DNA of 20,000 nucleotides. Origin: an uncultured virus (IMG/VR IMGVR_UViG_3300025809_000009) (lineage: Duplodnaviria > Heunggongvirae > Uroviricota > Caudoviricetes). The position numbers and the translations under genes were made by a program. This document shows positions 1 through 17,604 of this stretch, piece after piece. The first letter of the stretch is position 1, and every line of letters begins with the position of its first letter. Below the pieces are notes generated by a model that saw only the letters and a program-made list of their open reading frames with translations, did no database searches and had not been told where the DNA came from. The stretch lies in IMG/VR virus record IMGVR_UViG_3300025809_000009; one strand, 5' to 3'.

Positions 1-3000
1 CGCCAACTGCGTGCTTTTTTCTTGATCTTCTGACGAGTCTTTTGGATTGGCTCCTGCTTTATCATCCTTTTTCTCTGATTTCCCACTTCCCTTGTCCATA
101 TTAACCGTTATATTAATATTATTTGTATTTCCGCCAGAAGTTCCAGTTTCTGAGTTTTCTGTTAAGGGGGTCACTGCTCCACCATCATTAAATTTTCCTG
201 CATTTATTCGGTCGAGCATTGGCTTGCCAAGTTGTCGAGCGCTACTTGCTCGAATTACATATTCTCCTTCGCTGAGCATTGCGGGAATTTGATCGATGCC
301 AGACTTGCCAGCTATGTGGCCGCCGTTGGCATAACCATTTATTTTTCCTCCTCTATAAACAGCTCTTGACTCCTGGATAGACGTTGGGCTAAAAGGGCTG
401 TAATTGTCTTTAACGATTGAGCCAAAATCAAAGTCGTTTTCAAAGGGTTGATTTATGCTCATCGCCTCAGTTCTTGACATGCCGGTTTCTAGCATTGTTT
501 GATTTACTGCGGCTGAGTCTATGCCAGAAGATTTGCCCCAAGAATCAAGCATTGATTTTTCTCCTAGTGCTCCAGATTCAGCAAGGCCCTCAAGGCCAGA
601 GGAAACCATACTTCCAATTCCAACACTCAGAGCGGTACCTACGAGCATTTGCATTAAAGCTCTTTTTTTGGCTTTTTTCTCAGCCTCTTTTCTCATTCTT
701 TCTTGAATGATTCCTTTTGTATATTGAGTATCCTCTTGAAGTCCTAGGTTTCCAGATTGTCCGCTATAGAAAAACCCAGACATTGCTTGAGATTGATATC
801 TTCTTCCTGTGTTGTAACCTTCTCCTCCTCCAAAGTTTGCAGCAAGAGCGGATCCTGGCTGAGGCTCGTCTGGCTTACCTCCAGTTGAATAACCTGGAAG
901 TTTTCCGCCTGCGTTTAATCTATGCATAAATCCGCCACCGTATTTCTTCACAGCGTCGCCACCCATTACATATTCGCCATTAGTTACCATTGCAGGAACT
1001 CCGCCTCCTTTAGAATATTTTCTTACTCCTCCTCCGCTAGAAAACGGTAAAGCTCCAACGATTGCATCGGCGGCTTTGCCAAGGTATGCTTGTTGAATTG
1101 CTCCAAGAAAATTCATTGCAATATTATTCATAACATCGCTCAAGTCATCGGCTTTATTTATTGCTGCTTGCATACCGTCAACAAGGCCGTTTCTAAATTG
1201 ATTTGTTAATTCACCACCAAGTCTAAACTCCATCGTTTCAGCTTGCTCGACAATTCTTTTTTGAGCGTCCCTAGCTCCATTACGCATTGCGCCAGGTCCG
1301 GTTTCGTATTCCCTCTTAAGTTTTAATCTTTCCTTCTCTTTCTCTAAGAGTTCTTGGGCGCTTGATATTTCTGTTTTTGTCTCTGCGTTTATGTTTTTTA
1401 TTTTTTGTTCGATTTCGTCTAGGTTCTTTTTTCTTTCTTCTTGCGAATTTAAAAGCGCATCATACTCTTCCCAATCAGCCTCGCTTTTTAGTGTTATTTG
1501 GCCAGTCACCATACCCTCAAGCCTTTTTTCCTTAAGTTCGTCCCGTTTCTTTTTTGTATCCAGTCCGGCGAGTTTGTCTTTTTGATTTTCTTCGAGGGTT
1601 GTGATTTTAGATTCTAATTTAAATCTTTTCTCGGACATTGCAAAACTTTCTCTTTCTCTACCGGTTTGATATCCTGGGCCTACAGCATTCAACCTTCTTG
1701 CTGCGGCAACTTGTTCGGTAAAACCTCGGATTTTCTGGGAAGACTGAAGGCCTTCTGAAGACATGCGGTTTTTTCTTTCTAAATCTTTTATAATTTTATT
1801 TTCTGTCGCAACATAAAGATCTTGGCCCAATACTCTCTTAGCCGAACCTGCTTGTGATATTTTACTTTGTCTTGCTAGAGTTTCGTCAGACCGCTTTTTG
1901 TACACAAGAGATTCTATAGCTGCGAGATCTTGAGGGGAAACTCCATCTATCTCTTTTAATTTACCCACAAGCTCTTGTCCGCTCATTTTAGAGTAAGGTT
2001 TTGTAACATCTATTCTTGATATTCTGTTTTTTTCGCTAGCCTTGATGCCCATCTTCTTAGCTAAGTCACTCCTGACCGAGCTCTGCATACTAGGAGATCG
2101 TTTCACTAAAGTCATTAAGCCCTCCTTAAGACTAGAGTCTGCACCCCGAAGAGAAGAATCTAATTTTTCAGCGGCAGAATTCAGGGCTTTTTTGTATTTT
2201 ATTTGCGCTTTCTGTTGTTCGGTTATCGCGCCACCCATCACTTTTTCTTGAAAATCTAAATTTTCAGAAATTTGCCGATACTTATCTTTTATTCTTAATT
2301 GAGCCAATGCGGATTCTTGCTGTGAAACTAACATCGCTTTCTGATGGTTTAACTTAACAATCAAACCGCGAACTTCCTCTTTTCTTAAATCAGCAGATTC
2401 ATTTTCAGCTTTTCTTTCCCCAGCCATAAAAGACTCAAACATGACTTTTTTTCTTGATACATCAGCTTTCTCTAATTCTTTGGCATACTCTTTTCCCGTC
2501 CCTTTAAATTCGCTGCCTGCCTCAGCTCCTTTTGCAGAAAAAGTATAATCGGAAGGTAATGCGCGCAAGGCGTCTGAGAGTTTAGAATCCAGATTAGTAT
2601 TCATAATTTCATTCATGACTTTAACTTTTCCTTGAGCTTCGGGATCTTTTTCTTTTTTGTAAATCGTTGAACTTGTTAAAGGATCAAAGCCTTTTGCGAC
2701 GTTTATGGTTTTTGAATTTTCTTTTTTTATTTCCTGATTAAGTCTATTGTAGCCCTCTCTAAAATCTTTTAAATGTTTCTTAGCTTCTGGGAAATCTGAG
2801 AAAAGAGAAACTAAAGAGGACCCCATGCTTTTTGAATAGTCTAAATCGTCTTTCGCTTTTTTAATTGCGGCCTCTTCAGCCTTGCCTAACCCATCAACTA
2901 ATCCGTATAAACCTCCAACAGTAGCTCCTATAGCTGTGCCCAGCGGACCAAACATCATTCCCATTGCTGCTCCGCTACCAGCCCCTTGTAGAAAACCTCC

Positions 3001-6000
3001 GGTGGCTGCGCCAGCCGTACCCCCAATTGCGTCTTGCGCAAAACCTGCAGCCATAGGCAAGCCCATCATCAAACCCATTTGCCCACCAGTGCTACCAATC
3101 ATTCTTCCCGCCCTCGTTCCAGCAAACCTTGAGCTTGCGTTTTGTAGCCCAACGCTTCTCGCGGCTCTTTGCGTAGCTGCTTTTAATTTTTCTGTGGTCC
3201 CAATTAATTGATTTGTTTTTTTGGCTACTCTGTCTTGAGCGCTAGAACTTACGTTGTATTTGTTCCCAAGTTTTTGCATCATCTCTTGCATTTTCTTATG
3301 AGGAACCCTGCCCGTTTCAAATCTTTTTATAACACCGGCAATAGCTTTGTTATACTTTTTAGCGTTGCTCTCCGTTTGGGATTGCGCACCACTACCTCTA
3401 TAACCAACCACGTCAGAACTTGTAATTTCTGGTGCATAATTCGGCACGTATCCATTTGCAGCGCCAAATACATCTTTCAATCCATTTGGTTCGTCGTCTG
3501 TATTGGTTACGCCCAGACCGATTGGATTACTTTTATTCATTAGTGCTGAATGAGAGCCAATTCTTATTTTCGAAACAGGAACGCCAGCTTCTTTTTCTCT
3601 ACCTATTGCATCAGATAATGGGTTGGCGAAGTTGGGGATGTATCCGTGAGATTTTAATTGACTATTTAAACCTACCCTAGAAAATTTGCCGCTTTGTAAA
3701 GACTTAAACCCTGCCTTGCGAAGAAGAGTTGTTTGTTCTTCGTTGCTACTACTCCATGGTTTGTCGCCAACAAAAAGGCGGCCATCTTTTCTAGACAATA
3801 TACCTTTATTTAGATCAGATGTTTTGCTTAAGTTAGGAGCGCCAGCTTTACCAAACCTAACATCATATATTTTTCTAGCGAATGATTTAGCATTTTTTAT
3901 GTTTGTGTTTATTTTAGCTTCAGCACCTTTCCTACCTTTGCTACCAGGAACCCCAAACAATTTATATAATTCTTTATTTCTTGGCAAATCAATTCTTGCA
4001 CCTTGATCTTCTGTGATTTTATCGGTCTCTCCCACACCGCGTATAATGCTTTTTGCCACAGCCTCAAAGATATGGCCCGAAACAACAGCCATTTTACTTT
4101 TTGGTAAATCACTGTTCATATTTGATTTATCCATAGAAAAAGTATCACCTAGGGATAAACTATTTAAAATTTGATTAGTAACCTCAAATCCCTTATTTTG
4201 AAGTTTTTCATTTATTTGGTCTTCGAATCTTTTTGAGCCTCTTTTTTTATCTGATTCATCTAAGGTGTAAAAATCAAAAGCGACTTTAGCGCCCTTACCT
4301 TGATTGGGATTCGCGGTCTTTTTTCCTTTAGCGGGAGCATGAATATCTGTAAATCCTTTTGGTGGAGATCCGTCAGACCTAGCTTGGTAAACTCCACTAT
4401 CTGCAACACCAGGAACAACATAATAATAGTTACCAATTTGATCTGAACCTCTAGATGCGGCGAGACCAACATAATTAGAAGAATTTTGATTAATACCATA
4501 TTGAACTCTTCCCTGTTTAGCTGTAAACTTAGAAGTTCTCGGTTTAATTTTCTTAAAATTAGGTATATATCCTCCCGCAGCATATGGATCAAATCCATGT
4601 ATACTACCAAATGCTTGTTGATAATTCTCTCCAGCCTTACTTGACTTTGGAGGCATGATCGCAGGTTGACTCATCCCCTTAAAATTCTTTACTTTTTCTG
4701 CGCTGTTATATATTACCGAGCCTTCGCCAGGCATATTCATACTTCGAATACTTCCAGCAGCATATCCACCTCGCGCAGCTTGCTCGCGTTCTGGATCTGC
4801 AAAATTTGGAATGTGTCCGCCCGCTCTTCCCTTTCGAGGAGCAAGGCTTGCATTGTACCCTTTCGTGTATAAACTAGCGGCAACACTTTTTGATACAGAG
4901 TTCAACATGTTAGCTTCAACAACTTGAGCCTTCAAGAGTCCAAGGATTATTTTTTCCTTTTCCGTTCTTGAAATATCGGTTCGCAACATTTCCTTGCTTA
5001 TCGCTGCGTTTTGCCCAAATAAAGTAACAAGAGAAGTTTGTATTGCTTTTTGTTTATGAGCTTCGCTTGTTACCCCAATTAAAGATTGCAGACTTTGATT
5101 CGCATAAACCAAAGCTTTAGCAAATAACTTTATAAATACTGCGGAAATAACGACCAACCCTGGACCAGTTATGATATTACCCAAGCCCTTTAAAAAACCT
5201 TGAGCGAAATCGCTACCAGTGGATTCTCCACCGCCAAGCATTTCATTTGCTCCTTCAGCCAGTCCCTTGAAAACATTCAAAACCTTTTCCATTCCTGGAG
5301 CAAGCATGATTTCTCCAATCTGTGCGCTTAATTCTTTTAAAGCTATTCCGGTTTCTGTGGCCATTGCAGACATGGTCTGCCTTAATTGATCGTTTTTGTC
5401 TATAGCTTCTGTGGTGGCCCCTGCAGAGATTTGAGTAGCGTTTGCAAGTATACCGTTTTGCTTTGCAGCGTCACTCAGTACAGCTTTTAATATATTGATT
5501 TGAAAAACTCCACCAACCGTCTGAGCTATTTGTGCTTTTTGGGATTCCGTAAGATGATCAAAAGTGTTAGCGAGATCGGTTAAAATTCTTCTTGCGCCAA
5601 TCGTATTGCCTTCCAAATCTCTTACAGCGATACCCAGATTTTCCAATTGATTTAAAGTGTCTGTTCTTCCTATTCTTGTGAAAATTGTTTTAAATGAGTT
5701 TCCGATTACTTTACCACCTCGAGCAGTTTTTTGTTGTGCTGCAGTAACCAGACCTACCAACTCATCAATATCCACTCCAGCACTTTTCGCAGCCTGACCC
5801 GTTCGAGATATCGCATCAGCAAAATCTTCTGCACTAACAGCAAATTTTACATCAACCGCAGCGAATTTACTTACAAGTTGAGTAGTGTCTTTTATTTGAT
5901 CTCCATAAGTATTCATGGCCGCAGTCAAAGCTTTTACTGCGTTTGCAGAATCCATTCCAGTTAATCGAGTCAAAATAAGAGCGTCTCGAGTTCTTTTTAA

Positions 6001-6441
6001 AGACTCCTCCATCGTCAAGCCTTGACGAGCATACTCGGTAGCCGCTTCAGCGGCAACGTTAAAAGCTGCTCCGGTTTCCTTGGCGGTTTTAAATAAGCCG
6101 TTTGAGAATTTTTCTAAATTCGCTGTAGATAAATTCATAACTACATTGATATCAGCAAGAGCTTTTTCGACTTCAACAACATTTTTAACTAAAGCTTTAA
6201 AGCCGTCAGCTACTCCATTGATTATCGCCATACTCGCGCCAAACGCAATGATACGAGCGTTAGCAGCTTCCATAGATTTGCTAAACTCGTCAGCTCCACG
6301 CTTCATATTCCCAAGCGGCTGGGTAGCTCCCTTGTCATCCACCGTTATTTTGATCGGTGTTTTGCGAATACGGTTTACAGCCGCTTGAACAGCCGCTTCA
6401 AGCGGCTGTGTATTACCTTGTACGTTGAGATTTATAGACAT
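1..6441 (-). CDS. Tail tape measure protein, TP901/PhageMin_Tail type; 3' end lies beyond the window (>=2147 aa)
   Basis: ATG at 6441 (MSINLNVQGNTQPLEAAV...). The frame is open in every segment I translated and still open at base 1 (...DQEKSTQLA), and no stop-terminated ORF in this frame appears in the track. It has the TP901-type core (AATEYARQGLTMEESLKRTRDALILTRLTG...TARGGKVIGNSFKTIFTRI...LENLGIAV), a Gly/Ala-rich hydrophobic segment (~2890-3100), charged coiled-coil stretches and C-terminal PAM(L/V)xxGEYV modules. Confidence 0.93.
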   Translation of the reverse strand, partial: MSINLNVQGNTQPLEAAVQAAVNRIRKTPIKITVDDKGATQPLGNMKRGADEFSKSMEAANARIIAFGASMAIINGVADGFKALVKNVVEVEKALADINVVMNLSTANLEKFSNGLFKTAKETGAAFNVAAEAATEYARQGLTMEESLKRTRDALILTRLTGMDSANAVKALTAAMNTYGDQIKDTTQLVSKFAAVDVKFAVSAEDFADAISRTGQAAKSAGVDIDELVGLVTAAQQKTARGGKVIGNSFKTIFTRIGRTDTLNQLENLGIAVRDLEGNTIGARRILTDLANTFDHLTESQKAQIAQTVGGVFQINILKAVLSDAAKQNGILANATQISAGATTEAIDKNDQLRQTMSAMATETGIALKELSAQIGEIMLAPGMEKVLNVFKGLAEGANEMLGGGESTGSDFAQGFLKGLGNIITGPGLVVISAVFIKLFAKALVYANQSLQSLIGVTSEAHKQKAIQTSLVTLFGQNAAISKEMLRTDISRTEKEKIILGLLKAQVVEANMLNSVSKSVAASLYTKGYNASLAPRKGRAGGHIPNFADPEREQAARGGYAAGSIRSMNMPGEGSVIYNSAEKVKNFKGMSQPAIMPPKSSKAGENYQQAFGSIHGFDPYAAGGYIPNFKKIKPRTSKFTAKQGRVQYGINQNSSNYVGLAASRGSDQIGNYYYVVPGVADSGVYQARSDGSPPKGFTDIHAPAKGKKTANPNQGKGAKVAFDFYTLDESDKKRGSKRFEDQINEKLQNKGFEVTNQILNSLSLGDTFSMDKSNMNSDLPKSKMAVVSGHIFEAVAKSIIRGVGETDKITEDQGARIDLPRNKELYKLFGVPGSKGRKGAEAKINTNIKNAKSFARKIYDVRFGKAGAPNLSKTSDLNKGILSRKDGRLFVGDKPWSSSNEEQTTLLRKAGFKSLQSGKFSRVGLNSQLKSHGYIPNFANPLSDAIGREKEAGVPVSKIRIGSHSALMNKSNPIGLGVTNTDDEPNGLKDVFGAANGYVPNYAPEITSSDVVGYRGSGAQSQTESNAKKYNKAIAGVIKRFETGRVPHKKMQEMMQKLGNKYNVSSSAQDRVAKKTNQLIGTTEKLKAATQRAARSVGLQNASSRFAGTRAGRMIGSTGGQMGLMMGLPMAAGFAQDAIGGTAGAATGGFLQGAGSGAAMGMMFGPLGTAIGATVGGLYGLVDGLGKAEEAAIKKAKDDLDYSKSMGSSLVSLFSDFPEAKKHLKDFREGYNRLNQEIKKENSKTINVAKGFDPLTSSTIYKKEKDPEAQGKVKVMNEIMNTNLDSKLSDALRALPSDYTFSAKGAEAGSEFKGTGKEYAKELEKADVSRKKVMFESFMAGERKAENESADLRKEEVRGLIVKLNHQKAMLVSQQESALAQLRIKDKYRQISENLDFQEKVMGGAITEQQKAQIKYKKALNSAAEKLDSSLRGADSSLKEGLMTLVKRSPSMQSSVRSDLAKKMGIKASEKNRISRIDVTKPYSKMSGQELVGKLKEIDGVSPQDLAAIESLVYKKRSDETLARQSKISQAGSAKRVLGQDLYVATENKIIKDLERKNRMSSEGLQSSQKIRGFTEQVAAARRLNAVGPGYQTGRERESFAMSEKRFKLESKITTLEENQKDKLAGLDTKKKRDELKEKRLEGMVTGQITLKSEADWEEYDALLNSQEERKKNLDEIEQKIKNINAETKTEISSAQELLEKEKERLKLKREYETGPGAMRNGARDAQKRIVEQAETMEFRLGGELTNQFRNGLVDGMQAAINKADDLSDVMNNIAMNFLGAIQQAYLGKAADAIVGALPFSSGGGVRKYSKGGGVPAMVTNGEYVMGGDAVKKYGGGFMHRLNAGGKLPGYSTGGKPDEPQPGSALAANFGGGEGYNTGRRYQSQAMSGFFYSGQSGNLGLQEDTQYTKGIIQERMRKEAEKKAKKRALMQMLVGTALSVGIGSMVSSGLEGLAESGALGEKSMLDSWGKSSGIDSAAVNQTMLETGMSRTEAMSINQPFENDFDFGSIVKDNYSPFSPTSIQESRAVYRGGKINGYANGGHIAGKSGIDQIPAMLSEGEYVIRASSARQLGKPMLDRINAGKFNDGGAVTPLTENSETGTSGGNTNNINITVNMDKGSGKSEKKDDKAGANPKDSSEDQEKSTQLA

Positions 6442-6479: not shown

Positions 6480-7466
6480 CTATCCTACTCCATGCAATTT
6501 CATTAAATCTTCCATATTTAAAGTTCCGCCCTTCTTTTTGGCTTCTTCGTGAAGACTTACCCCTCCCTTAGGCTTGTCCACCCCAAGATACTCATAATCC
6601 TCATCCTTAGCTCCAACTAGAGTTCCAGCGCTACCTTGATTTAGTTTGTCTTTGGCTTTGTCTCGCTCTTCTTTTGAGGAGCCTCCAAAGTCTAACAGTT
6701 TCGCGGGATCTTTCCTTATATTATCTGGTATATTTTCATTATTATCAAATATATTTTTAAATACTCTAGTATAAACTATTAATCTTATTTGATTGTATGT
6801 TAAATTACAAAACGGTTTTCCATAAAATTGCATACTGTCTTCAGCAAAACTTAAATATGGATTATAAAAATCTTCTAATATAGTATATTGTATATTTTCT
6901 TCATTAAAGCTCTTAAAGACATCGTTATAACGAGAAACTATTTTCTTTAAATCTTGATTCTCTAATTGATCAAATTCATCTTCACCAAATAAAGGAATCA
7001 ATAAATCTTTATCTTTATAAAAACTTTTAATCATATAAAAATCATTTAATCTATCTTTTGCATATTTCTCGCAAGTGTTTCCAACAAGAGACATCCTCTG
7101 AGCGAGTTTTTGATTCAGTGCGAGGGTTTCTTCTTCTATTGTTTTTTCTTGCTTGTCAATCTGGTTCTTGATCACCATTTTTGTTTTGGCGGTCTTTAAA
7201 GTTTCAAGAAAATACTCCTTATCCTCTATGAATTTTTCGTCCTTGTCTCCCCAGTCTCCCTCTTCTTTTAAAAAAGCAAGCATCTCTTCTTCTGTGGGCA
7301 CGCCCCGACGAAGGGCTGCGTTAAAATATTTTTCCTCTATCTCTTCAAGCTCTACTTGGTCGTGCGGAGTCAAGTGCTTGATGTAAACAAAGTCCTCGTC
7401 AAGAATTGTGGAAGAGTAACCTCTAACTACATCCCTAAATATCTTTCTGCGCTTGACCGCTTCCAC
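6480..7466 (-). CDS. Probable tail assembly chaperone-like protein (328 aa)
   Basis: Long ORF with a GTG start; acidic, helical/coiled-coil composition; immediately upstream of the TMP on the same strand. Function inferred from position only. Confidence 0.55.
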   Translation of the reverse strand: MEAVKRRKIFRDVVRGYSSTILDEDFVYIKHLTPHDQVELEEIEEKYFNAALRRGVPTEEEMLAFLKEEGDWGDKDEKFIEDKEYFLETLKTAKTKMVIKNQIDKQEKTIEEETLALNQKLAQRMSLVGNTCEKYAKDRLNDFYMIKSFYKDKDLLIPLFGEDEFDQLENQDLKKIVSRYNDVFKSFNEENIQYTILEDFYNPYLSFAEDSMQFYGKPFCNLTYNQIRLIVYTRVFKNIFDNNENIPDNIRKDPAKLLDFGGSSKEERDKAKDKLNQGSAGTLVGAKDEDYEYLGVDKPKGGVSLHEEAKKKGGTLNMEDLMKLHGVG

Positions 7467-7471
7467 ATATA

Positions 7472-8281
7472 TTAAATACTACCGTCCTCGATATCTTTGT
7501 CTAGCTTTTCGAAATCTAGTTTCGAAACTGCGCCAGAACTGTAATACCAAAAGCTAAAAAATGCGGCAACCTTTCCTCCGACTATATCATAAAGATCGTT
7601 CCCCTCCTCCTCAAGCTCGTAATAAGTTTGAAGCTTTTGCTCAAAATCGCGACCCTCAAATAAAGGAGATATTTCCTCTTCGTCAGACTTCTGAACAAAA
7701 GTGAGATTTAAAATATACCATTGAATAACTTTATTCTCGGCTCTTACGTCAGCGGTGTGGTTGAAAAGGTTAGAATATGAAGTCTCGACATTAATAATAT
7801 CTTTCCTTAAAAGAGCTATCTCTCCAGCGATTTCCTTTAATCGCGCTGTATCCTTTTCTGTTTTAACATTTTTTATCTGAATCTTTTCGCTTTCCTGGGA
7901 GAATTCTCCATACCTTACGTACATTTTTGTCAGAGCTTTTGCGTCCTCTTCCGCAAGCAGTCCACCTGTATCGCTGTATTTTTTTGCGAGCATGGCTTTT
8001 GTTAAAATCCCTCGCTTTATACAATTACTCATTTCGACACTAAATTCCAATTCGGCATCTTCTATTTGCCTGCGAGTTGGCTGCTTCATTATGAGTCGAT
8101 AAGGAATTGGCTCAACCACTTCCTTGGTTACAGAAACTTCTTCCTCTTCGCCGGTTTCTTCGTTCTTGACTTTGCTCGTCTCTGTTTTCTTGACCTTCTC
8201 TTCTTTTTCAAAAGTGAAGCTGTAAATTTCACGCAGTTTTTTGCGGGTATCGTTTATTGTTGGGGTTGCTGTGTCTGACAT
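7472..8281 (-). CDS. Probable tail assembly chaperone-like protein (269 aa)
   Basis: Long ORF rich in Glu/Lys with a coiled coil; co-oriented and tightly packed (5-nt gap) with the next gene toward the TMP. Function is positional inference. Confidence 0.5.
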   Translation of the reverse strand: MSDTATPTINDTRKKLREIYSFTFEKEEKVKKTETSKVKNEETGEEEEVSVTKEVVEPIPYRLIMKQPTRRQIEDAELEFSVEMSNCIKRGILTKAMLAKKYSDTGGLLAEEDAKALTKMYVRYGEFSQESEKIQIKNVKTEKDTARLKEIAGEIALLRKDIINVETSYSNLFNHTADVRAENKVIQWYILNLTFVQKSDEEEISPLFEGRDFEQKLQTYYELEEEGNDLYDIVGGKVAAFFSFWYYSSGAVSKLDFEKLDKDIEDGSI

Positions 8282-8290
8282 AATTTTATT

Positions 8291-8578
8291 TTATTTAAAT
8301 GTAAAGCCTATGGTATAATTATCTAAATCCATTTCGATATTTCTAATAGTTTCATTGCCAATATCTAAAGTTCTTTTTCTTAGGTGATGCAACTTATCTA
8401 AACTGAAGTAGTCAGCTTGATCCACAACTGGCACGCAACCCTCTGGCAAATTATTTCTTAATTTATTAAAATTAATTTGATGCTCCTTATGTAAATCCTC
8501 AAGCATAACGAGGAAACCCTTAAAAAGGGAAACCGTATTCCTGTGGCAACATTTTTTAAAAATGTCTTCTGCTTCCAT
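8291..8578 (-). CDS. Hypothetical protein (95 aa, MEAEDIFKKCC...)
   Basis: Start moved from 8623 to the ATG at 8578, because the upstream extension overlaps the divergent regulatory region. First gene of the minus-strand unit. Confidence 0.7.
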   Translation of the reverse strand: MEAEDIFKKCCHRNTVSLFKGFLVMLEDLHKEHQINFNKLRNNLPEGCVPVVDQADYFSLDKLHHLRKRTLDIGNETIRNIEMDLDNYTIGFTFK

Positions 8579-8616
8579 ATGTATTATTGTTGTAGATCCT
8601 TGTACCTGTATCGATA

Positions 8617-8641
8617 TACACAAAAAAAAATCTTTAGTGTA
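8617..8641. promoter_or_regulatory. TACAC-N15-GTGTA dyad, candidate back-to-back phage late promoters
   Basis: Lies between divergent starts 8578(-) and 8651(+); same geometry as 13345-13369. Confidence 0.65.
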
Positions 8642-8650
8642 AAAGTATTC

Positions 8651-9109
8651 ATGGCAGAATTATTGACAGCGGCAGAAAGAGCAAGCGTGGCAGCGAACTT
8701 GTTAGATCTTCATGATACATTCGGAAGAGACATTGTTGTATATAAAGAAGCTCAAAAAGTTATAGTTAGCACAGACCCTAATTTTAATTATCTTTACGGA
8801 ACAGGCGGGGCCTCCACCACAAGCGTGGAGAATATTCCTGTAAAGAAAATATTTAAAGCTAGAATCAGGTACGACTCGGATAGAAGTTTGGAAAATTTCG
8901 GAGAGGCTGGAGCCCAAATAAAAGTAAGCCGACCAGACGGAGGTAGCTTAGTAAGGATTAAATTAAAAGCTGAAGACTATGCCTATATTAAAGAGGCAAA
9001 AAGAATCGAGCTTGACGGAAGAATGTTTCACGTAGATTCTGACCCAAGAGCTCACGGACTTTTTGATGTTATACAATTTTATTCACTGCTATTAAGACCC
9101 ATAGAGTAA
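8651..9109 (+). CDS. Putative head-closure / head-tail joining protein (152 aa)
   Basis: The real start is probably ATG 8651 (MAELLTAAER...). The C-terminus is beta-rich (VRIKLKAEDYAYIKEAKRIELDGRMFHV...FYSLLLRP), resembling stopper proteins. First gene of the neck-to-tube cluster. Confidence 0.55.
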   Translation: MAELLTAAERASVAANLLDLHDTFGRDIVVYKEAQKVIVSTDPNFNYLYGTGGASTTSVENIPVKKIFKARIRYDSDRSLENFGEAGAQIKVSRPDGGSLVRIKLKAEDYAYIKEAKRIELDGRMFHVDSDPRAHGLFDVIQFYSLLLRPIE

Positions 9110-9732
9110 TGGCCAAGATGATAGACAAAGGAGTCAAGAGGGCATTAGATCTTGAAATTCGAAAAAACAAACAATTGATAAATGAAGGAAGATTAATAAT
9201 TGAATCTCAATTCAAAGTGGCTCATGGAAAATTAATGCAAGATTTTGAATCCCACGCAATAACAAGAGAGCTAAAAAGAGGCCCCGCTTCTAAAAATTTA
9301 AGCGGAACTTTACCAGAAGGAAACTTATTTGGATTTATAGGTTTTGAAATTGGAGATGATCCAGTATATGAATTACAAAATCTTTTACAGCGCACAAATA
9401 TATTAATAAAAAGAAGAAAGTTTGGATCTTTTGGTTTTGTTTGGAGTTTTGCGGTAAATATACCAACATTAAAAGATCTTTATGCAGCCACCCCATTGCC
9501 TTGGGCAAAAGGAGCAAGCTGGCTACAGCAGCTAGAAGGTCAAGGCATAGCTAATTTAGGTCAATACATGCACGCAAAAAGCCCTCCAGCAGGACGATCA
9601 GGAGCGGGAATCCAATCCGGCAGGGAGTCGGGAGGCAGATTAAAAAAACAATATATAAAACCTTTATTGAAAGATTTTGAAACCAACTTAAACACCCTAT
9701 CTGCAACAAGATTATCTAAATCTTATTTTTAA
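9109..9732 (+). CDS. Putative tail completion / neck protein (207 aa)
   Basis: Basic protein, coupled to the upstream gene by a TAATG overlap. It ends in a KQYIKPLLKDF motif like HK97-gp10/tail-completion proteins and sits in the canonical position. Confidence 0.5.
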   Translation: MAKMIDKGVKRALDLEIRKNKQLINEGRLIIESQFKVAHGKLMQDFESHAITRELKRGPASKNLSGTLPEGNLFGFIGFEIGDDPVYELQNLLQRTNILIKRRKFGSFGFVWSFAVNIPTLKDLYAATPLPWAKGASWLQQLEGQGIANLGQYMHAKSPPAGRSGAGIQSGRESGGRLKKQYIKPLLKDFETNLNTLSATRLSKSYF

Positions 9733-10584
9733 ATGAAGCCACAATTCCAACATCAAGTTACTACAAGTTTTGTCTTATGGGCTGACAATTTTATAACTAA
9801 AAAAGCGGACGCATTCTCAAGCAAGTCGTCTGATTTTTATGCAGACACCGGAGACGCGAGGCTTGGCCCCGGGTTGGTGTCTTACAATAGCCCCTACAAG
9901 CAATGGGTTAGCGACGAAAGCATAGAGGGGGCGAACATACCTAGCGGCGTTTACGACAATGGAACATTCGTTCCAAGAGGGCAAGACGGATTAAAAATTG
10001 ATTTTGACAATGGGCGAGTGATATTCGATTCAAGTTTTGGAGCAAATAAAACTACATTAAGTGGAGATTATACAGTAAAAGATTTTAACTTTTATATAAC
10101 AAATCAAACAGAAGAGCAATTGATAGTTGAAAGTAAATTTGATTCAAATAGCAGATTCAAGCAGTCGCTAGGAGGAATTGAGCCTTATAAACAAGTCATA
10201 CCTGCAATTTTTGTAAACTCGGAAATGGCAGAAAATGAACCGTTTGCATTCGGAGGAGAAGATAAAACCACCACAAGTATTCGTTGCGTTGTTTTTGCAG
10301 AAAATACATACCAACTTGATGGCGCTTTATCCGTTTTTGCTGATTCAAAAAATGAAGTCTTTGCTAAATTAGGTTTTGAAGATTTTCCGCTAACAGAATA
10401 CGGAGACACTACAGGTTTTAATTATAAAGAGCTTGCAACATCAAAACGAGAAACTTTTTTTCATATAGAAGAGGCGAGAGTTTCAAAATTAAGCGACAGA
10501 ATAAGCAAAAATATAGACCCATCTCTTTTTGTAGGCTTTATAGATTTCGAAATAACCAACCTAAGGTATCCTCGCTTTTCTTAA
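9733..10584 (+). CDS. Putative tail terminator protein (283 aa)
   Basis: Directly precedes the tube gene. The C-terminal half has PAIFV...FAFGG...IRCVVFAENTYQLDGALSVF, a lambda-gpU/T5-p142-like pattern. The N-terminal half has a beta-rich IDFDNGRVIF segment. Confidence 0.55.
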   Translation: MKPQFQHQVTTSFVLWADNFITKKADAFSSKSSDFYADTGDARLGPGLVSYNSPYKQWVSDESIEGANIPSGVYDNGTFVPRGQDGLKIDFDNGRVIFDSSFGANKTTLSGDYTVKDFNFYITNQTEEQLIVESKFDSNSRFKQSLGGIEPYKQVIPAIFVNSEMAENEPFAFGGEDKTTTSIRCVVFAENTYQLDGALSVFADSKNEVFAKLGFEDFPLTEYGDTTGFNYKELATSKRETFFHIEEARVSKLSDRISKNIDPSLFVGFIDFEITNLRYPRFS

Positions 10585-10646
10585 AACTTCCCTTTTTTAT
10601 ACAAAAAATGTAATAGAAACAGAATCTAATCTTATTAATAAATATT

Positions 10647-12026
10647 ATGGCACAAAATTTACCAGGACGAGCAAGAGTAATTTACCAGAGTGAAGCATTA
10701 TATGCTGGGACGGTAAATGCTACAGGGCACCATTTTAGCGTTTCTAATGACGCTTGGTCAACAAAATCAGGAGTGGCGAAACTCGCAGACGTTCCAGCTG
10801 GCTACGAAGTCAGAACGGGAATCGAGCAGTTGCGCAGAGTACAAAATGCAAATTATAGTTTTAGCGTTAATCGGCAAGATGTTAATCAATTTGGACAGTT
10901 AGCTAGAATTGATTCTGTTTCCATTGAACCGCCGACAGTAACTCTTGATTTTTCTTACTACCTGACAAACGGCATTAACGAAAGAATTCTAGGAATGAAT
11001 GTTGACGGAACTTCAAGCGCCTTAGCGGATGATATTATCGGAGGTACTGAGTGCGGACAAAACCTTAATGCAGATGGAAAAAACTTTTTTATATTAACTA
11101 CCTGCGAAGGTCACGATGCAGTAGGCAATCAAGACATGGATGACGGCAAAAGCGTTATTGCATTAGGAAACGGTTATGTTTCGAACTATTCCATAGAAGC
11201 CTCTGTGGGAAGTATGCCAACCGCAAATGTTACTGTTGATGGATTAAATTTAAAGAGTTACGTTGGAAGCACAGGCTTAGACATTCCGGCAGTAAATTCT
11301 AATTTTGGGATTCCAATTTCAGACATACATTTTAATATTCCTCCGGCAGTTAGCGGTGTTCTTAACGACAGTGCTGCAGGAGGTTTAGATACCGAAGAAG
11401 AAGGTTGGTCCTGCTTGCGTCCTGGAGACATAACAATGTCCCTAGGAACAGACGGAAGAGCTGCAGAGTTCGAGCTTCTTCCAGGGAACGATCCTCGAGG
11501 AGATCTTGGTTATGGAAGAACAGCGGGCGGTTTTGATATCTCTACAGGTGCTGGCTACCAGGGCGTCAACGATAATCCAATGCATGATTATACCGTTGAT
11601 GGCTCAGCTCACGTCCAAAGCTTTAGTATCGATGTTCCGATGTCAAGAACAGTTCTTAACAGACTTGGAACTCCTTATGGATACTCAAGAGTTGTTGATT
11701 ACCCTTTAAATATTTCTGTTAGCGTAAACGCTATTATGGCAGATCTTAAAGCTGGAAACGTAGCGGATCTCATCTGGAACACAGAGGAGCATGATCTAGT
11801 ATTCACTCTTAGAGAACCAAACCAATACGGAACAGGCTCTGTTGCGATGCAGTATATAGTTAAAGGCGCACTGCTAGAAGGAGAATCTTTCAGTTCCTCA
11901 ATTGGGGATAATAAATCAGTAGATTTAACATTTACTGCTCAAGTCGGCGGACCCGAAGATCTCGCAAGAGGTTTGAGGATACTCGGCTCAAGGAATGCTC
12001 TCACCATCACTGGTAAATTCGCCTAA
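10647..12026 (+). CDS. Major tail tube protein with an internally duplicated tube domain (459 aa)
   Basis: Two similar halves: RVQNANYSFSVNRQDVNQFG / HVQSFSIDVPMSRTVLNRLG, and GNGYVSNYSIEASVG / KGALLEGESFSSSIG. Follows the neck genes and is followed by a strong terminator. Confidence 0.75.
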   Translation: MAQNLPGRARVIYQSEALYAGTVNATGHHFSVSNDAWSTKSGVAKLADVPAGYEVRTGIEQLRRVQNANYSFSVNRQDVNQFGQLARIDSVSIEPPTVTLDFSYYLTNGINERILGMNVDGTSSALADDIIGGTECGQNLNADGKNFFILTTCEGHDAVGNQDMDDGKSVIALGNGYVSNYSIEASVGSMPTANVTVDGLNLKSYVGSTGLDIPAVNSNFGIPISDIHFNIPPAVSGVLNDSAAGGLDTEEEGWSCLRPGDITMSLGTDGRAAEFELLPGNDPRGDLGYGRTAGGFDISTGAGYQGVNDNPMHDYTVDGSAHVQSFSIDVPMSRTVLNRLGTPYGYSRVVDYPLNISVSVNAIMADLKAGNVADLIWNTEEHDLVFTLREPNQYGTGSVAMQYIVKGALLEGESFSSSIGDNKSVDLTFTAQVGGPEDLARGLRILGSRNALTITGKFA

Positions 12027-12216: not shown

Positions 12217-13335
12217 TTAAGCTCTGTAGAACTTTAAGCCTCCGCTAGCAGTAACTCCAAACGAAAAAGAAGAACTTACCGAAGCGTCTGCCCCGATTGC
12301 CTGGGAATAACTTTGTTGTTTTAGCTGGGCGTTTTCAATTTTAAAAGAATTTATATTGGTTATTCCTCCAGATCCGTCTCTTTCTGTGTGAGATATTATC
12401 ATATCGTATCTTGATCCTTGCGTAAAAAAAGAGTCTATCTCTCCTGTATAAAATTCTCTAAGAGTCATATCCATAGATACGGACCCAATCACAGGAAACT
12501 TAAGTTTTCGGTCGAACACATAATTACTTCCAAAGCCATAAATATCCTGTCTAGGGATTGGAAGGTTTATGTTTATGTTTTGTATAGCAGCTTCCACATC
12601 GTCTAGAACTGCTCCCCCGTGGGCTCCTGCGTTTTTGGTTATATTTATTATGATTCCCCCAGGCATTATTGCTGGTACATCATTATCTGTATGAGGATTC
12701 AAAGAGTCTTCGTTCAAAACCAATCTTTCCTGTGAGGGTTTATTTTCAACCCCAAGCTTGATAGATGGAAAATAAGGAGGATTGTGCTCTTTATATTCAT
12801 CAAACCTCATATTACTACAAAGAAAAGATACAGAGCAAACAGGAAGCTGCCCGACAGAGGCTGAGTATTCGTAAGTTTTTAAAAAAGAATTACCAAAACC
12901 TACTACATTATAACCAGAAAACCCCTGTTGATCTGTTACGTTATTTAAATCCCTATGGCCGCAACCTCCTGCGTCGGCGATCAAGAATAAATTAACATCA
13001 TCAGTTCCTTGGGTATTGTAAAAATTCTTTAATAAGCTTCCGTCGGATCCAAGATAAAAACCTAATGATTCTTCGTTTTCTCCGCTGGAAAATATATACG
13101 ACATACTACAGTCGATTTCTGGTTGGCGAATAATTGGAGATTCATCGTCTTGAGAGACTAGTATATCGGAGCCTATCGCTTTTACATCTAAAGCCGGGTG
13201 AGAAAAGCTGTATTCCATACTCTGAACTCTGGTTAAATCCCCAGAGGTTGAAGCTGCGTCCTTGTATCCAGGAAAATCAGTTATTAAAACCCCAAACCTT
13301 TCGTAACTTATTCGATCTACTTTGGATTTACCCAT
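12217..13335 (-). CDS. Second, paralogous tail tube-like protein (possible baseplate/tip tube protein; 372 aa)
   Basis: Motifs are colinear with 10647-12026: LTRVQSMEYSFSHPALDVKAIG, VGFGNSFLKTYEYSASVGQLP, IQNININLPIPRQDIYGFG...KFP, QLKQQSYSQAIG. Confidence 0.7.
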   Translation of the reverse strand: MGKSKVDRISYERFGVLITDFPGYKDAASTSGDLTRVQSMEYSFSHPALDVKAIGSDILVSQDDESPIIRQPEIDCSMSYIFSSGENEESLGFYLGSDGSLLKNFYNTQGTDDVNLFLIADAGGCGHRDLNNVTDQQGFSGYNVVGFGNSFLKTYEYSASVGQLPVCSVSFLCSNMRFDEYKEHNPPYFPSIKLGVENKPSQERLVLNEDSLNPHTDNDVPAIMPGGIIINITKNAGAHGGAVLDDVEAAIQNININLPIPRQDIYGFGSNYVFDRKLKFPVIGSVSMDMTLREFYTGEIDSFFTQGSRYDMIISHTERDGSGGITNINSFKIENAQLKQQSYSQAIGADASVSSSFSFGVTASGGLKFYRA

Positions 13336-13344
13336 TAAATGAAG

Positions 13345-13369
13345 TACACCTTTTTATCAATTAAGTGTA
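13345..13369. promoter_or_regulatory. TACAC-N15-GTGTA dyad, candidate back-to-back phage late promoters
   Basis: Lies between divergent starts 13335(-) and 13386(+). Confidence 0.65.
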
Positions 13370-13385
13370 TTTACAAAAGACCGCC

Positions 13386-15329
13386 ATGCCAAATAGTAAA
13401 ATTTCAGAACTTAAAGAAGCTTTTGCGCTGCGATCGGAGAACATTCTGGATTCTTTTCCGACGCAAGCTCAAATTTCTGGGCATGGAAACGGAGACAATA
13501 ACGCCTCTTTAATTATAGCAAGAGCAAACTCTCACAATGAGAAAATTTCCTATAATCATTTAAAATCCTCTTTATTAGACAAGAGCGTTTTGCTTACCGG
13601 AAATCAACTTATCAGCGGTCAAAAAACTTTCACAGACCCTTGCACTTTCTTAAGTAGAACAAACATTAATGAAATTTTTGATGAAACGCAGACAGGGGAT
13701 ATAAGTGGAAATATTTTTGTTGGCACAAGCGGTTTATTTCAGAAAATTGGCATATCAAATATTTTTCACGAAAGAGATGATGAGCCATCTTATACGTTGC
13801 ATGCTTCTGGAGATTCTTGTTTCTTGGGGGGCATAACTAACACCGGATACCATAGACATATAGGCAATATTTACAGGATCGGAGATTCAAACCTTCTAGG
13901 TGATTTCAATATCACCGGAGATTCTTGGAGAATTGGCGACGTAGATATGAAAGGTGATTTCTATATCTCAGGAAATTTCTTCACTCAAATAGGGGATTCT
14001 ACCAGGTCTGGAGATCAGCTTGTAATTGGTGATATTACTCATACTGGTTACCACAGGCAAAAAGGAGATTTTTATAGAATAGGCGAATCTGATTTTATTG
14101 GAGACTTCTCGGTTACTGGCGACTCATTAATGGTAGGCGATATCAAAATGGAGGGTAACTATTATTTGACTGGAGATTTTACCCAAACAGGAAATTCAAC
14201 TATTTTTGGGGACGAAAGGGTTACGGGAGATGTTCATGTTGGAGAGTACATTTACCACTACCAAGACGAAGATACATTTATTAAACTTGAAGAAGATCAG
14301 ATATCGTTATCTGTAAACGCACATTCAGAAATCTTAATCAGCGAATCGAATAATGATTTCATCTCTTTTTCTACTTCTGGAGAAGAGCAAATGCGGATAG
14401 ATAACTCTGGATTCGTTGGGATTAATACTGTAGACACGCTCGGAGAACTCTCGGTAACAGGAGACTCTTTTCTTGAAAATATTTTTGTATACGACGAATT
14501 TGCTAAAAAATTCAACAAGGTTTATGGGGGGGACGACGAAACAATATCTTTCTCAACGCCGATAAAGGGTGGCAAAAAAAGATACTTGATAGATTTACCC
14601 AAAACTTTTAAAGAAAAGCCTATATTATCTGTATCTCTTGAAAGTTGTGACGGGAATGTTATTTTGCCCTTTATTTTACAAGATGCGAATAGATATGAAT
14701 TTTATATACAATTCCACAGAAACCTCCCTAATACAAAATACATAGTGAGAACAACTGCATTATGTTCTTCTGTAATGCAAAACAAAAATGAATTGAATTA
14801 TAAAAATTTTCCGTATTGCTCCTCTATGGATCCGGGGGCAAATCGTCACGGAATGCAGAGGTTTTATTTTACGCCAGCGCAAGATTCAGCGACACAGGAA
14901 ATTCATTTCCCATTGATATATGAAAACATACCGAATATTTCAATCAATGTCGAAGGCCCAGGGTTTGTTGTTCCATATGTGGTTTCAAATATAACAAAAG
15001 AATCTTTCACCTTAAAACTTGGGGCAAAATTAACGAAAAACCACGTTGTGCACTGTTGCTCTAGCGAGCCTGGATTCCATAGGCTAGGGCAAAAGCTTAT
15101 TTATAACGCTCAATGGTTTGAGGATCAAGGAGATTATTTATCGTTCAGAGAGTTTCATCCTGGAAATGGATTCTACAGGCCGGAGTTTGTTACGTCCCTG
15201 CCTGCCTTAGAATTATGGGAGTTAAATTCAATCAGCGGAACAATAAAACCTAGATGCGAACCTTATGCTTCTGAAGATGCTGTACCTTATTTCTTTGAGA
15301 GGACCGGAAACTACTTAACCACTCCATAA
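13386..15329 (+). CDS. Tail fibre/spike-like protein A (647 aa)
   Basis: Start probably ATG 13386 (MPNSKISEL). Has the fibre motif LTGNQLISGQKTF, a GD-hexapeptide beta-repeat shaft, a MRIDNSGFVGI motif and two C-terminal (F/L)PxxF/YxxxP (H-type-lectin-like) domains. Confidence 0.75.
   Translation: MPNSKISELKEAFALRSENILDSFPTQAQISGHGNGDNNASLIIARANSHNEKISYNHLKSSLLDKSVLLTGNQLISGQKTFTDPCTFLSRTNINEIFDETQTGDISGNIFVGTSGLFQKIGISNIFHERDDEPSYTLHASGDSCFLGGITNTGYHRHIGNIYRIGDSNLLGDFNITGDSWRIGDVDMKGDFYISGNFFTQIGDSTRSGDQLVIGDITHTGYHRQKGDFYRIGESDFIGDFSVTGDSLMVGDIKMEGNYYLTGDFTQTGNSTIFGDERVTGDVHVGEYIYHYQDEDTFIKLEEDQISLSVNAHSEILISESNNDFISFSTSGEEQMRIDNSGFVGINTVDTLGELSVTGDSFLENIFVYDEFAKKFNKVYGGDDETISFSTPIKGGKKRYLIDLPKTFKEKPILSVSLESCDGNVILPFILQDANRYEFYIQFHRNLPNTKYIVRTTALCSSVMQNKNELNYKNFPYCSSMDPGANRHGMQRFYFTPAQDSATQEIHFPLIYENIPNISINVEGPGFVVPYVVSNITKESFTLKLGAKLTKNHVVHCCSSEPGFHRLGQKLIYNAQWFEDQGDYLSFREFHPGNGFYRPEFVTSLPALELWELNSISGTIKPRCEPYASEDAVPYFFERTGNYLTTP
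14010..14461 (+). repeat. Dispersed near-identical repeat, copy 1 (copy 2 at 16579-17030)
   Basis: Colinear at a constant offset of 2569 nt with long exact runs (e.g. GGAGATTTTACCCAAACAGGAAATTCAACTATTTTTGGGGACGAAAGGGTTACGGGAGATGTTCAT). Confidence 0.93.
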
Positions 15330-15332
15330 AAA

Positions 15333-15337
15333 GTGTA
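15333..15337 (+). promoter_or_regulatory. GTGTA motif upstream of fibre B
   Basis: AAAAGTGTAC, 14 nt before ATG 15352, within a 22-nt intergenic gap. Confidence 0.55.
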
Positions 15338-15351
15338 CATACAACTTGAAA

Positions 15352-17580: not shown

Positions 17581-17590
17581 ACTAAAACTA

Positions 17591-17595
17591 GTGTA
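17591..17595 (+). promoter_or_regulatory. GTGTA motif upstream of the S74 fibre gene
   Basis: CTAGTGTAAG, 9 nt before ATG 17605, within a 24-nt intergenic gap. Confidence 0.55.
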
Positions 17596-17604
17596 AGTAA
17601 AAAT

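Follow-up and report, generated by a model that had tools for sequence, protein, structure and literature searches.

A fenced and exchangeable domain with a conserved charged site inside the tape measure protein of an uncultured tailed phage

Introduction

The locus described here raises the question of what a discrete, basic segment is doing in the interior of a phage tape measure protein (TMP), and whether that segment might be cargo with nuclease-type chemistry. The window, by which we mean the whole 20,000-nucleotide stretch of DNA that was analysed, comes from an uncultured virus of the Caudoviricetes (IMG/VR record IMGVR_UViG_3300025809_000009) and carries its TMP gene on the minus strand. 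An original prediction, made from the letters alone, proposed that between two GYIPNF peptides this TMP switches to a globular segment, here called the cassette, which bears the signature of a PD-(D/E)xK nuclease and could be injected into the host. The observation itself has been confirmed and its interpretation is partly supported. We find a segment that is predicted to fold as a domain, that keeps a small set of charged residues among highly divergent relatives, and that is exchanged between phages at conserved borders. Tentatively, we read it as an enzyme-like domain with nuclease-type chemistry that the TMP carries as swappable cargo.

A predicted folded cassette between conserved fence peptides

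The TMP of the window contains four peptides of the pattern G-[HY]-[IV]-P-N-[FY], which we call fence peptides, and 3646-4554 is exactly the interval that separates the second from the third.

1-6441, minus strand: tape measure protein gene, its first 2147 codons inside the window (open reading frame and translation)
4801-4818, minus strand: fence peptide 1, GHIPNF, starting at amino acid 542 (motif search)
4555-4572, minus strand: fence peptide 2, GYIPNF, amino acids 624-629 (motif search)
3628-3645, minus strand: fence peptide 3, GYIPNF, amino acids 933-938 (motif search)
3436-3453, minus strand: fence peptide 4, GYVPNY, starting at amino acid 997 (motif search)
4555-4818, minus strand: fence module A, amino acids 542-629 (88 residues), opening with GHIPNF and closing with GYIPNF
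3436-3645, minus strand: fence module B, amino acids 933-1002 (70 residues), opening with GYIPNF and closing with GYVPNY
3838-4500, minus strand: cassette core, amino acids 648-868, a predicted alpha/beta domain with a long helical hairpin (AlphaFold2)
3646-3837, minus strand: accessory C-terminal subdomain, amino acids 869-932 (64 residues), a predicted hairpin and two helices (full-segment AlphaFold2 model)

No further copy of the fence pattern occurs in the six frames of the window, and when the TMP was shuffled at least one match arose in 4 of 5000 shuffles, compared with four matches in the real protein. Across the clade the consensus reads G-[HYF]-[IV]-P-N-[FY]. BLASTP located module A in 48 of 52 homologous TMPs, at 84-95% identity; module B is 79-97% identical in 48 relatives and 53-65% identical in four distant ones (BLASTP). 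The two modules are weakly similar to one another (25% identity, E 2e-4 in a single comparison), and neither has a Pfam match. Throughout the clade, few parts of the TMP are as well conserved as these two.

The original prediction of a discrete folded cassette between GYIPNF peptides held, with its coordinates exact. An AlphaFold2 model of the core (amino acids 648-868, from the 24-row alignment A2) reached a predicted local distance difference test score (pLDDT) of 84.2 and a predicted template modelling score (pTM) of 0.80, and a model of the full segment (amino acids 624-938, from a 21-row alignment) reached a pLDDT of 74 and a pTM of 0.60, with both fence peptides and two loops disordered. 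In the numbering of the core model, strands lie at 10-16, 25-28, 37-39, 71-79 and 192-198 and helices at 92-115, 125-131, 134-155, 176-182 and 201-216; after the hairpin formed by 92-115 and 134-155, the chain runs through a beta-bridge at residue 171, a short helix, the strand 192-198 and the helix 201-216. The accessory subdomain, modelled in blocks with pLDDT of 83-90, has strands at 259-262 and 265-268 and helices at 278-286 and 299-306 of the full-segment model. Taken together, the models predict that 3646-4554 encodes an autonomously folding domain made of a core and a small accessory subdomain. As had also been proposed, the segment is basic, with an isoelectric point of 10.0 and 54 Lys and Arg residues against 29 Asp and Glu, though the whole TMP is likewise basic at 9.46.

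The accessory subdomain is present in a minority of the relatives, namely 4 of 51 other TMPs by BLASTP (P0003 at 46% identity, P0009 at 83%, P0016 at 75% and P0045 at 35%). Despite their 83% and 75% identity in this subdomain, P0009 and P0016 have a cassette core that is only 30-32% identical to that of the window. The contrast in P0009, 83% for the subdomain against 32% for the core, indicates that the subdomain moves separately from the core.

A conserved charged site

The string quoted in the original prediction, SGHIFEAVAKSII...GARIDLP...GAEAKIN...AKSFARKI, is found on the minus strand at 3871-4077 and contains a set of charged residues that are retained across the family.

3871-4077, minus strand: conserved charged site G789-x-x-F-E793...D818...E841-x-K843...K857 (translation and alignments)
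4063-4065, minus strand: codon of E793
3988-3990, minus strand: codon of D818
3919-3921, minus strand: codon of E841
3913-3915, minus strand: codon of K843
3871-3873, minus strand: codon of K857
4180-4242, minus strand: RGSKRFEDQINEKLQNKGFEV, proposed as a second start of restriction-endonuclease-like (REase-like) type, corresponding to the first long helix of the hairpin (helix 92-115, core model)

In alignment A1, which holds 21 sequences with 23-81% identity to the window, the invariant columns within the domain are G789, F792, E793, D818, F829, G836, G839, E841, K843, A855 and K857. Alignment A3, which covers the core and was built from locus DNA only, holds 31 sequences with 15-58% identity to the window, and there the invariant columns are reduced to G, E, D, K and K. 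For a wider count, we defined a cassette as the first stretch of 200-340 amino acids between two fence peptides; proteins and loci together yielded 105 such cassettes, 82 of them unique. Conservation of the E, D and ExK residues among homologs had been set beforehand as a test, and it bore out: the Glu is kept in 79 of the 82 and the Asp in 81, the third position is Glu in 67 and Asp in 13 (80 of 82), the Lys of (E/D)xK is kept in 79, and the last position is Lys in 79 and Arg in 3. Three cassettes deviate, two of which (L045 and L046) are different modules and the third of which (L049) is very distant and poorly aligned. The versions with Asp in place of Glu read GDFDV...ADYK and occur in L005, L013, L016, L021, L022, L024, L025, L027, L034, L041 and L044, and the protein P0060 has its own Asp version, FDF...IDAK.

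The spacing in the cassette of the window is 25 amino acids from E to D and 23 from D to ExK. A pattern built on this arrangement, G..FE-x(18-34)-hDh-x(14-32)-[ED]xK, appeared in 21 of 5000 shuffles of the TMP. Among 60 relatives, 58 retain it; the exceptions are P0058, which carries the pattern with LDM, and P0059, which is without it. On these counts we rejected chance occurrence for the site pattern, as for the fence pattern. Pairwise identity between cassettes drops to 15-20% while the charged site persists, and an invariant Gly together with four charged residues and a position restricted to E or D, at such low identity, makes a sequence pattern typical of an active site. The core model places E in helix 134-155, D at the beta-bridge residue 171 and ExK in strand 192-198, so that the order along the chain is helix (E), beta-bridge (D), strand (ExK) and helix (K).

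The second REase-like start fared differently. Its letters are indeed present at 4180-4242, but across the 82 cassettes the aligned columns of RGSKRFEDQINEKLQNKGFEV hold F in 12, E in 10 and D in 26, and with its Glu kept in only 10 of 82 it was rejected as a motif.

Exchange of the cassette between phages

Among the 52 TMPs, the N-terminal 541 amino acids are 72-97% identical to those of the window in 48 close relatives and 37-40% identical in four distant ones. The cassette core is 26-45% identical in the relatives, with the exception of P0003, whose core is 89% identical and whose N-terminus only 79%. A blastn comparison of the window TMP gene with 44 related loci found the borders of similarity close to the fences. 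In 39 of these loci, similarity of 73-95% runs from nucleotide 1 of the gene to nucleotide 1883-1908 (fence peptide 2 ends at nucleotide 1887), resumes at nucleotide 2773-2803 (fence peptide 3 starts at nucleotide 2797) and stops again at nucleotide 3005-3018 (fence peptide 4 ends at nucleotide 3006). No nucleotide match inside the cassette was found by blastn in any of the 44 loci.

The locus of the window's phage, L003, and the locus L005 are 97.7% identical over 5572 nucleotides, up to 3 nucleotides short of the end of fence peptide 2, and at the other end a block of 3.3 kb is 98.1% identical. The only matches between these blocks are module B (76.8%) and one block of 841 nucleotides (92.4%), and within the cassette the two loci have no nucleotide similarity. 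Flanks that are 97.7% identical led us to reject gradual divergence as the origin of the variety of cassettes.

The same picture emerged when loci were compared in pairs. For this count 38 loci were used, after dropping those without the full 500-amino-acid N-terminus as well as L001, L002 and L004, which are duplicates of the window's phage. Over the resulting 703 pairs, N-terminal identity and cassette identity showed next to no correlation (Spearman coefficient 0.076). Where N-termini were at least 90% identical (74 pairs), the cassettes were less than 50% identical or without a reported BLASTP match in 57; where cassettes were at least 80% identical (24 pairs), the N-termini were less than 85% identical in 7, as in L029 and L030, with identical cassettes (100%) and N-termini at 83.8%. 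Close pairs of cassettes had ratios of nonsynonymous to synonymous substitution rates (dN/dS) of 0.065-0.389 (13 pairs, several of them near-duplicates), which points to purifying selection; with all values below 0.4, ongoing positive selection within cassette types was rejected.

With breakpoints at the fences and next to no correlation between the two identities, the comparisons show that old, divergent versions of one domain, each under purifying selection, move among phages by recombination at conserved fence DNA. In polymorphic toxins and polyvalent proteins, too, a scaffold stays constant while a variable functional domain is swapped at a fixed junction. The original prediction had asked whether the segment is swapped for unrelated domains while its flanks stay conserved. 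The flanks are conserved and the segment is exchanged, but close relatives have it replaced by divergent versions of the same domain, and unrelated modules fill the slot only in distant TMPs (L045/L046 and L049).

Comparison with PD-(D/E)xK nucleases

PD-(D/E)xK phosphodiesterases use E, D, (E/D)xK and K residues of this kind to bind Mg2+ and to activate water, and in the Mrr/Hjc-type arrangement they follow the order GxxFE (helix), D (strand) and (E/D/Q)xK (strand). The cassettes have the same residues in the same order and at similar spacing, comprising an acidic residue placed by the model in a helix, an Asp and (D/E)xK; the modelled helix, bridge and strand that carry them correspond to their expected places in that fold. 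They also share the interchange of E and D at the third position, and in the cassette as in these enzymes a strand is followed by a helix bearing the conserved Lys. The modelled cassette differs from them in that its sheet is completed by N-terminal strands and that a helical hairpin of 65 residues is inserted.

Several results weigh against a nuclease-type cargo domain. In the canonical fold beta-1 follows the FE helix and precedes the Asp; the core model shows no strand there. Pfam gave no match for the cassette segment, and a Pfam scan of the 21 members of A1 produced only four unrelated single-member matches, with no nuclease family at E up to 1 in either scan; NCBIfam and PADLOC gave no nuclease family for 31 cassette members. 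Searching PDB sequences with the cassette segment by phmmer returned no match, and profile searches of the PDB returned only cohesin, HisRS and designed repeat proteins, all of them spurious. Foldseek found no match at E <=0.001 for either model in the PDB, nor any in BFVD. When hhalign was used to compare the cassette with E. coli Mrr or with 19 Mrr homologues, the probability was 0.1-0.2%, in a comparison that represents a single PD-(D/E)xK family by a shallow profile, the Mrr homologues being 77-100% identical. Nothing beyond the motif ties the domain to any nuclease family. Furthermore, no close relative lacks the domain, as would be expected of an essential structural part just as much as of an effector, and exchange is not unique to the cassette, since the TMP segment after module B is also mosaic.

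Other searches of the cassette were likewise negative: PHROGs gave no nuclease family for the segment, tblastn found no match in 50,697 phage records, and the ESM Atlas search gave no usable match. Foldseek and VIA-align listed no nuclease, although their fold lists were filled by the helical hairpin and the rest of the model was barely tested. The best local alignment from hhalign put the FE of the cassette on the RFE helix of Mrr, without significance. The proposed restriction-endonuclease fold is therefore backed by the motif, was not recovered by profile or fold searches, and is not refuted by them either. Even if it is not a nuclease, the domain has a fold that is modelled with confidence, has what looks like an active site, and matches no solved structure. 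In the open literature (subscription journals lie outside this search) we found no paper describing a nuclease-type domain in a TMP, and none containing both 'IPNF' and 'tape measure'.

Discussion

Our tentative reading of the cassette as enzyme-like cargo starts from the charged site. Metal-dependent cleavage or binding of nucleic acid is favoured because the conserved residues and their order are those of the PD-(D/E)xK set. The cassette, whose scaffold may be a very divergent restriction-endonuclease fold or a new one, would be cargo in a fixed slot of the TMP. Two similar fence modules bound this slot, and related phages have recombined at the conserved fence DNA, shuffling divergent versions among near-identical genomes. 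At infection it would leave the virion together with the TMP, in which it lies between two hydrophobic segments (amino acids 415-449 and a stretch from about amino acid 1157) that could hold it at the membrane; there its acidic residues may bind a divalent metal and its Lys may help to cut or grip nucleic acid. We infer the catalysis, substrate, delivery and timing of the cassette.

5095-5199, minus strand: strongly hydrophobic, membrane-span-like segment upstream of the cassette region, amino acids 415-449 (Kyte-Doolittle maximum 2.11)

Hydrophobicity was scored on the Kyte-Doolittle scale in 19-residue windows, and weaker hydrophobic stretches of the TMP begin at about amino acids 1157 and 1928.

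In the main rival reading, possible if on the whole unlikely, the cassette is instead a non-catalytic host-contact or plug domain, which folds after ejection or is seated in a tail cavity. Its partner would be a host component that varies, perhaps a protein of the inner membrane, one that mediates superinfection exclusion, or a sensor of a defence system. Different versions would match different hosts, and the conserved Glu, Asp and Lys would stabilise the fold or coordinate a structural ion. The constant position of the domain in the close family speaks for an essential part rather than an optional effector. Which version a phage carries is independent of the remainder of its genome, as with receptor-contact modules; searches matched no enzyme family or fold, and the adjoining TMP regions are mosaic too. 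What tells against such a domain is the nature of the site: the only invariant columns are a Gly, four charged residues and a position restricted to E or D, which resembles an active site, whereas buried structural residues are usually hydrophobic, and the order, spacing and E/D swap of the motif copy a known catalytic one.

A different enzymatic role strikes us as improbable: a hydrolase of new fold that attacks peptidoglycan or some other component of the envelope, in the wall or the membrane, with the carboxylates as acid and base in the manner of the known lysins borne by TMPs. A helix Glu followed by an Asp also occurs in lysozyme-like enzymes, and the hydrophobic TMP segments on either side of the cassette would sit in the envelope. 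What has been documented as enzymatic cargo of TMPs is muralytic (PMC6116005, PMC1796659). No lysozyme, transglycosylase, amidase or peptidase family or fold was matched by the cassette, however, and no recognisable peptidoglycan hydrolase domain was found in Pfam scans of the whole TMP or of the 21 cassette members. Two invariant lysines beside the carboxylates would also be unusual in a glycosidase.

A nuclease-derived domain that binds DNA without cutting, and might hold or guide the leading genome end as the TMP exits the tail, would suit the basic segment (isoelectric point 10.0), the nuclease-like motif and the fact that the TMP exits ahead of the DNA, but this is very doubtful, as nuclease derivatives that have become inactive have usually lost their catalytic residues, all of which the cassette retains, the whole TMP is basic, and no DNA-binding fold was matched.

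Against this background, enzyme-like cargo in a TMP would have precedents. Earlier reports describe TMPs that carry enzymatic domains used at entry (PMC6116005, PMC1796659): the TMP of mycobacteriophage TM4 has a peptidoglycan-hydrolase motif (PMC1796659), and T5 pb2 and the muramidase of the phiIPLA35 TMP are cited as further examples (PMC6116005). The cassette shares with these a folded enzyme-like element within the ruler protein that would exit the tail at infection. It differs in that their elements belong to recognisable cell-wall hydrolase families and the cassette matches none, and in that the cassette has a repeated peptide at its borders and passes between phages as one unit. A second likeness is to the Sle1-type, TMP-related effectors of actinobacterial contractile injection systems, a TMP-derived scaffold whose functional domains differ between relatives and can be replaced (PMC13277306). 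Sle1 is cargo of a phage-tail-like particle of Actinobacteria with a C-terminal variable part (PMC13277306), whereas the scaffold in the window is a true phage TMP (PF10145) with an internal slot and defined fence peptides, and the likeness is one of architecture. A TMP with an embedded functional domain is thus known; what is new is a fenced, exchangeable slot and a domain that combines an apparent active site with an unrecognised fold.

If the slot is filled by an exchangeable enzyme-like domain, it would represent a new way for phages to carry and diversify the first proteins to reach the cell interior. Should the domain be a nuclease, these large uncultured phages would deliver a DNA- or RNA-cutting activity ahead of the genome, with consequences for host takeover, for keeping out competing phages and for evading defence systems. 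For engineered phages, the sharp recombination boundaries offer a natural design for cargo swapping.

Relatives and other fenced modules

A search with amino acids 620-945 over 5.8 billion proteins returned 52 proteins of 1184-2834 amino acids, and phmmer over 1.84 billion cluster representatives returned only 10 at E <=0.001. All of these 10 except the 7819-amino-acid P0059 bear the fence peptide and are therefore TMPs or TMP fragments. P0059 has four weak matches to cassette residues 50-103 (E 1.4e-4) and has neither a fence peptide nor the E/D/ExK pattern; it is probably an unrelated or compositional match, judging from its sequence. When a profile was used to look for free-standing homologues among proteins of 142-564 amino acids, only P0060 was found (hhalign probability 96.9%). 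This protein of 265 amino acids, from a contig of 129,634 bp, consists of a cassette core of the DxK version followed by a fence peptide and fence module B; it may exist free-standing or derive from a broken TMP. With the conserved fence module as query, 48 IMG/VR loci were retrieved, some of them on contigs of 140-184 kb, and a search with the same module found no prophage copy among 185,579 prokaryote species, each represented by one genome. Because the protein, locus and species-genome searches gave only these relatives, the cassette domain appears confined to a TMP clade of uncultured phages.

Some relatives contain additional fenced modules, of 99-106 amino acids in 12 proteins, 133 in P0040, 256 in P0048 and P0050, and 103 in P0053; those of 99-106, 133 and 256 amino acids come after the cassette. 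The module of 99-106 amino acids contains ...SNPYF...LLKQG... and has among its carriers P0003, P0008, P0014, P0023, P0024, P0028, P0035, P0036, P0046 and P0047.

The distant TMPs hold other kinds of module. In L045 (8712-9185), and also in L046, a fenced module of a TMP of 3303 amino acids has weak matches only to GNAT acetyltransferases, which span the acetyl-CoA motif region: the matches to three GNAT Pfam families lie at E 0.0027-0.042, under the cut-off in each case, and all six weak PDB matches, at E 0.031-1.5, are acetyltransferases. The TMP of L049 has 3331 amino acids and six fence peptides, with fenced modules at L049:11361-12389 and L049:8706-9572. One L049 module contains HEAGH, a zinc-protease-like HExxH, with no family match found, and another has a sub-threshold match to a CDI toxin restriction-endonuclease-like domain (E 0.11). 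As leads, these sequence matches suggest that the slot tends to hold enzyme-like modules. The L049 TMP also matches DUF6861 at amino acids 2585-2687 (E 5.1e-7).

A bolder proposal, which we regard as highly unlikely as it stands, is that the TMP is a polyprotein-like vehicle whose fence peptide is a processing site that frees the modules at ejection, making it a phage counterpart of polymorphic toxins. Asn-dependent self-cleavage occurs in some viral capsid proteins, and the fence peptide might be cleaved in such a way. A nuclease-like enzyme of a previously unseen fold would then be released free into the cell, distant relatives would release an acetyltransferase-like or an HExxH module, and the repertoire, reshuffled by recombination at fence-coding DNA, would be used in host takeover or counter-defence.

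The tape measure protein gene and its neighbours

The product of 1-6441 on the minus strand is, on sequence grounds, a TMP of the TP901 type: PF10145 scores above its gathering cut-off, the protein is very long, and a tail gene lies nearby.

5509-6087, minus strand: PhageMin_Tail domain, TMP amino acids 119-311 (Pfam PF10145, E 7.4e-29, 101.5 bits against a cut-off of 33.2)

PF10145 is present in 50 of the 52 homologues, and ten TMP PHROGs match the N-terminal 400-500 residues, the best at E 9.5e-51. The full protein has 2170 amino acids, its last 23 codons lying beyond the start of the window, and a database record, P0002, is a 100% identical protein of 2170 amino acids. The N-terminal PhageMin_Tail domain is shared with the TMP of TP901-1 (PMC5099701) and the PF10145 family. 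At 2170 amino acids the window TMP has about double the length of the TP901-1 protein. The window TMP further differs from that of TP901-1 in having fence modules and a cassette, for which Pfam and PHROGs offer no description, and several of its homologues were named 'TP901 family phage tail tape measure protein' by JGI.

The whole TMP has no Cys and only 3 Trp. Its C-terminal part contains two copies of G-G-x-(I/V)-P-A-M-(V/L)-x-x-G-E-Y-V, at about amino acids 1835-1870 and 2040-2090, and phrog_13338 matches amino acids 2032-2084 in this region.

The reading frames 6480-7466, 7472-8281 and 8291-8623, which share the strand of the TMP gene and lie directly upstream of it, occupy the position of tail tube and chaperone genes. 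They are among eight open reading frames of 110-459 amino acids that adjoin the TMP at 6480-12026 and 12217-13335 and that have no significant Pfam or PHROG match, the sole entry being Eaf7 for 7472-8281 (E 0.0076, below the cut-off). Opposite the TMP, three large genes on the plus strand fill 13365-19677. The first two, 13365-15329 and 15346-17580, have weak tail or baseplate PHROG matches, the product of 15346-17580 also matching F5/8 type C below the cut-off, and the third, 17605-19677, encodes a tail fibre whose C-terminal part is a Peptidase_S74 intramolecular chaperone (E 1.6e-16).

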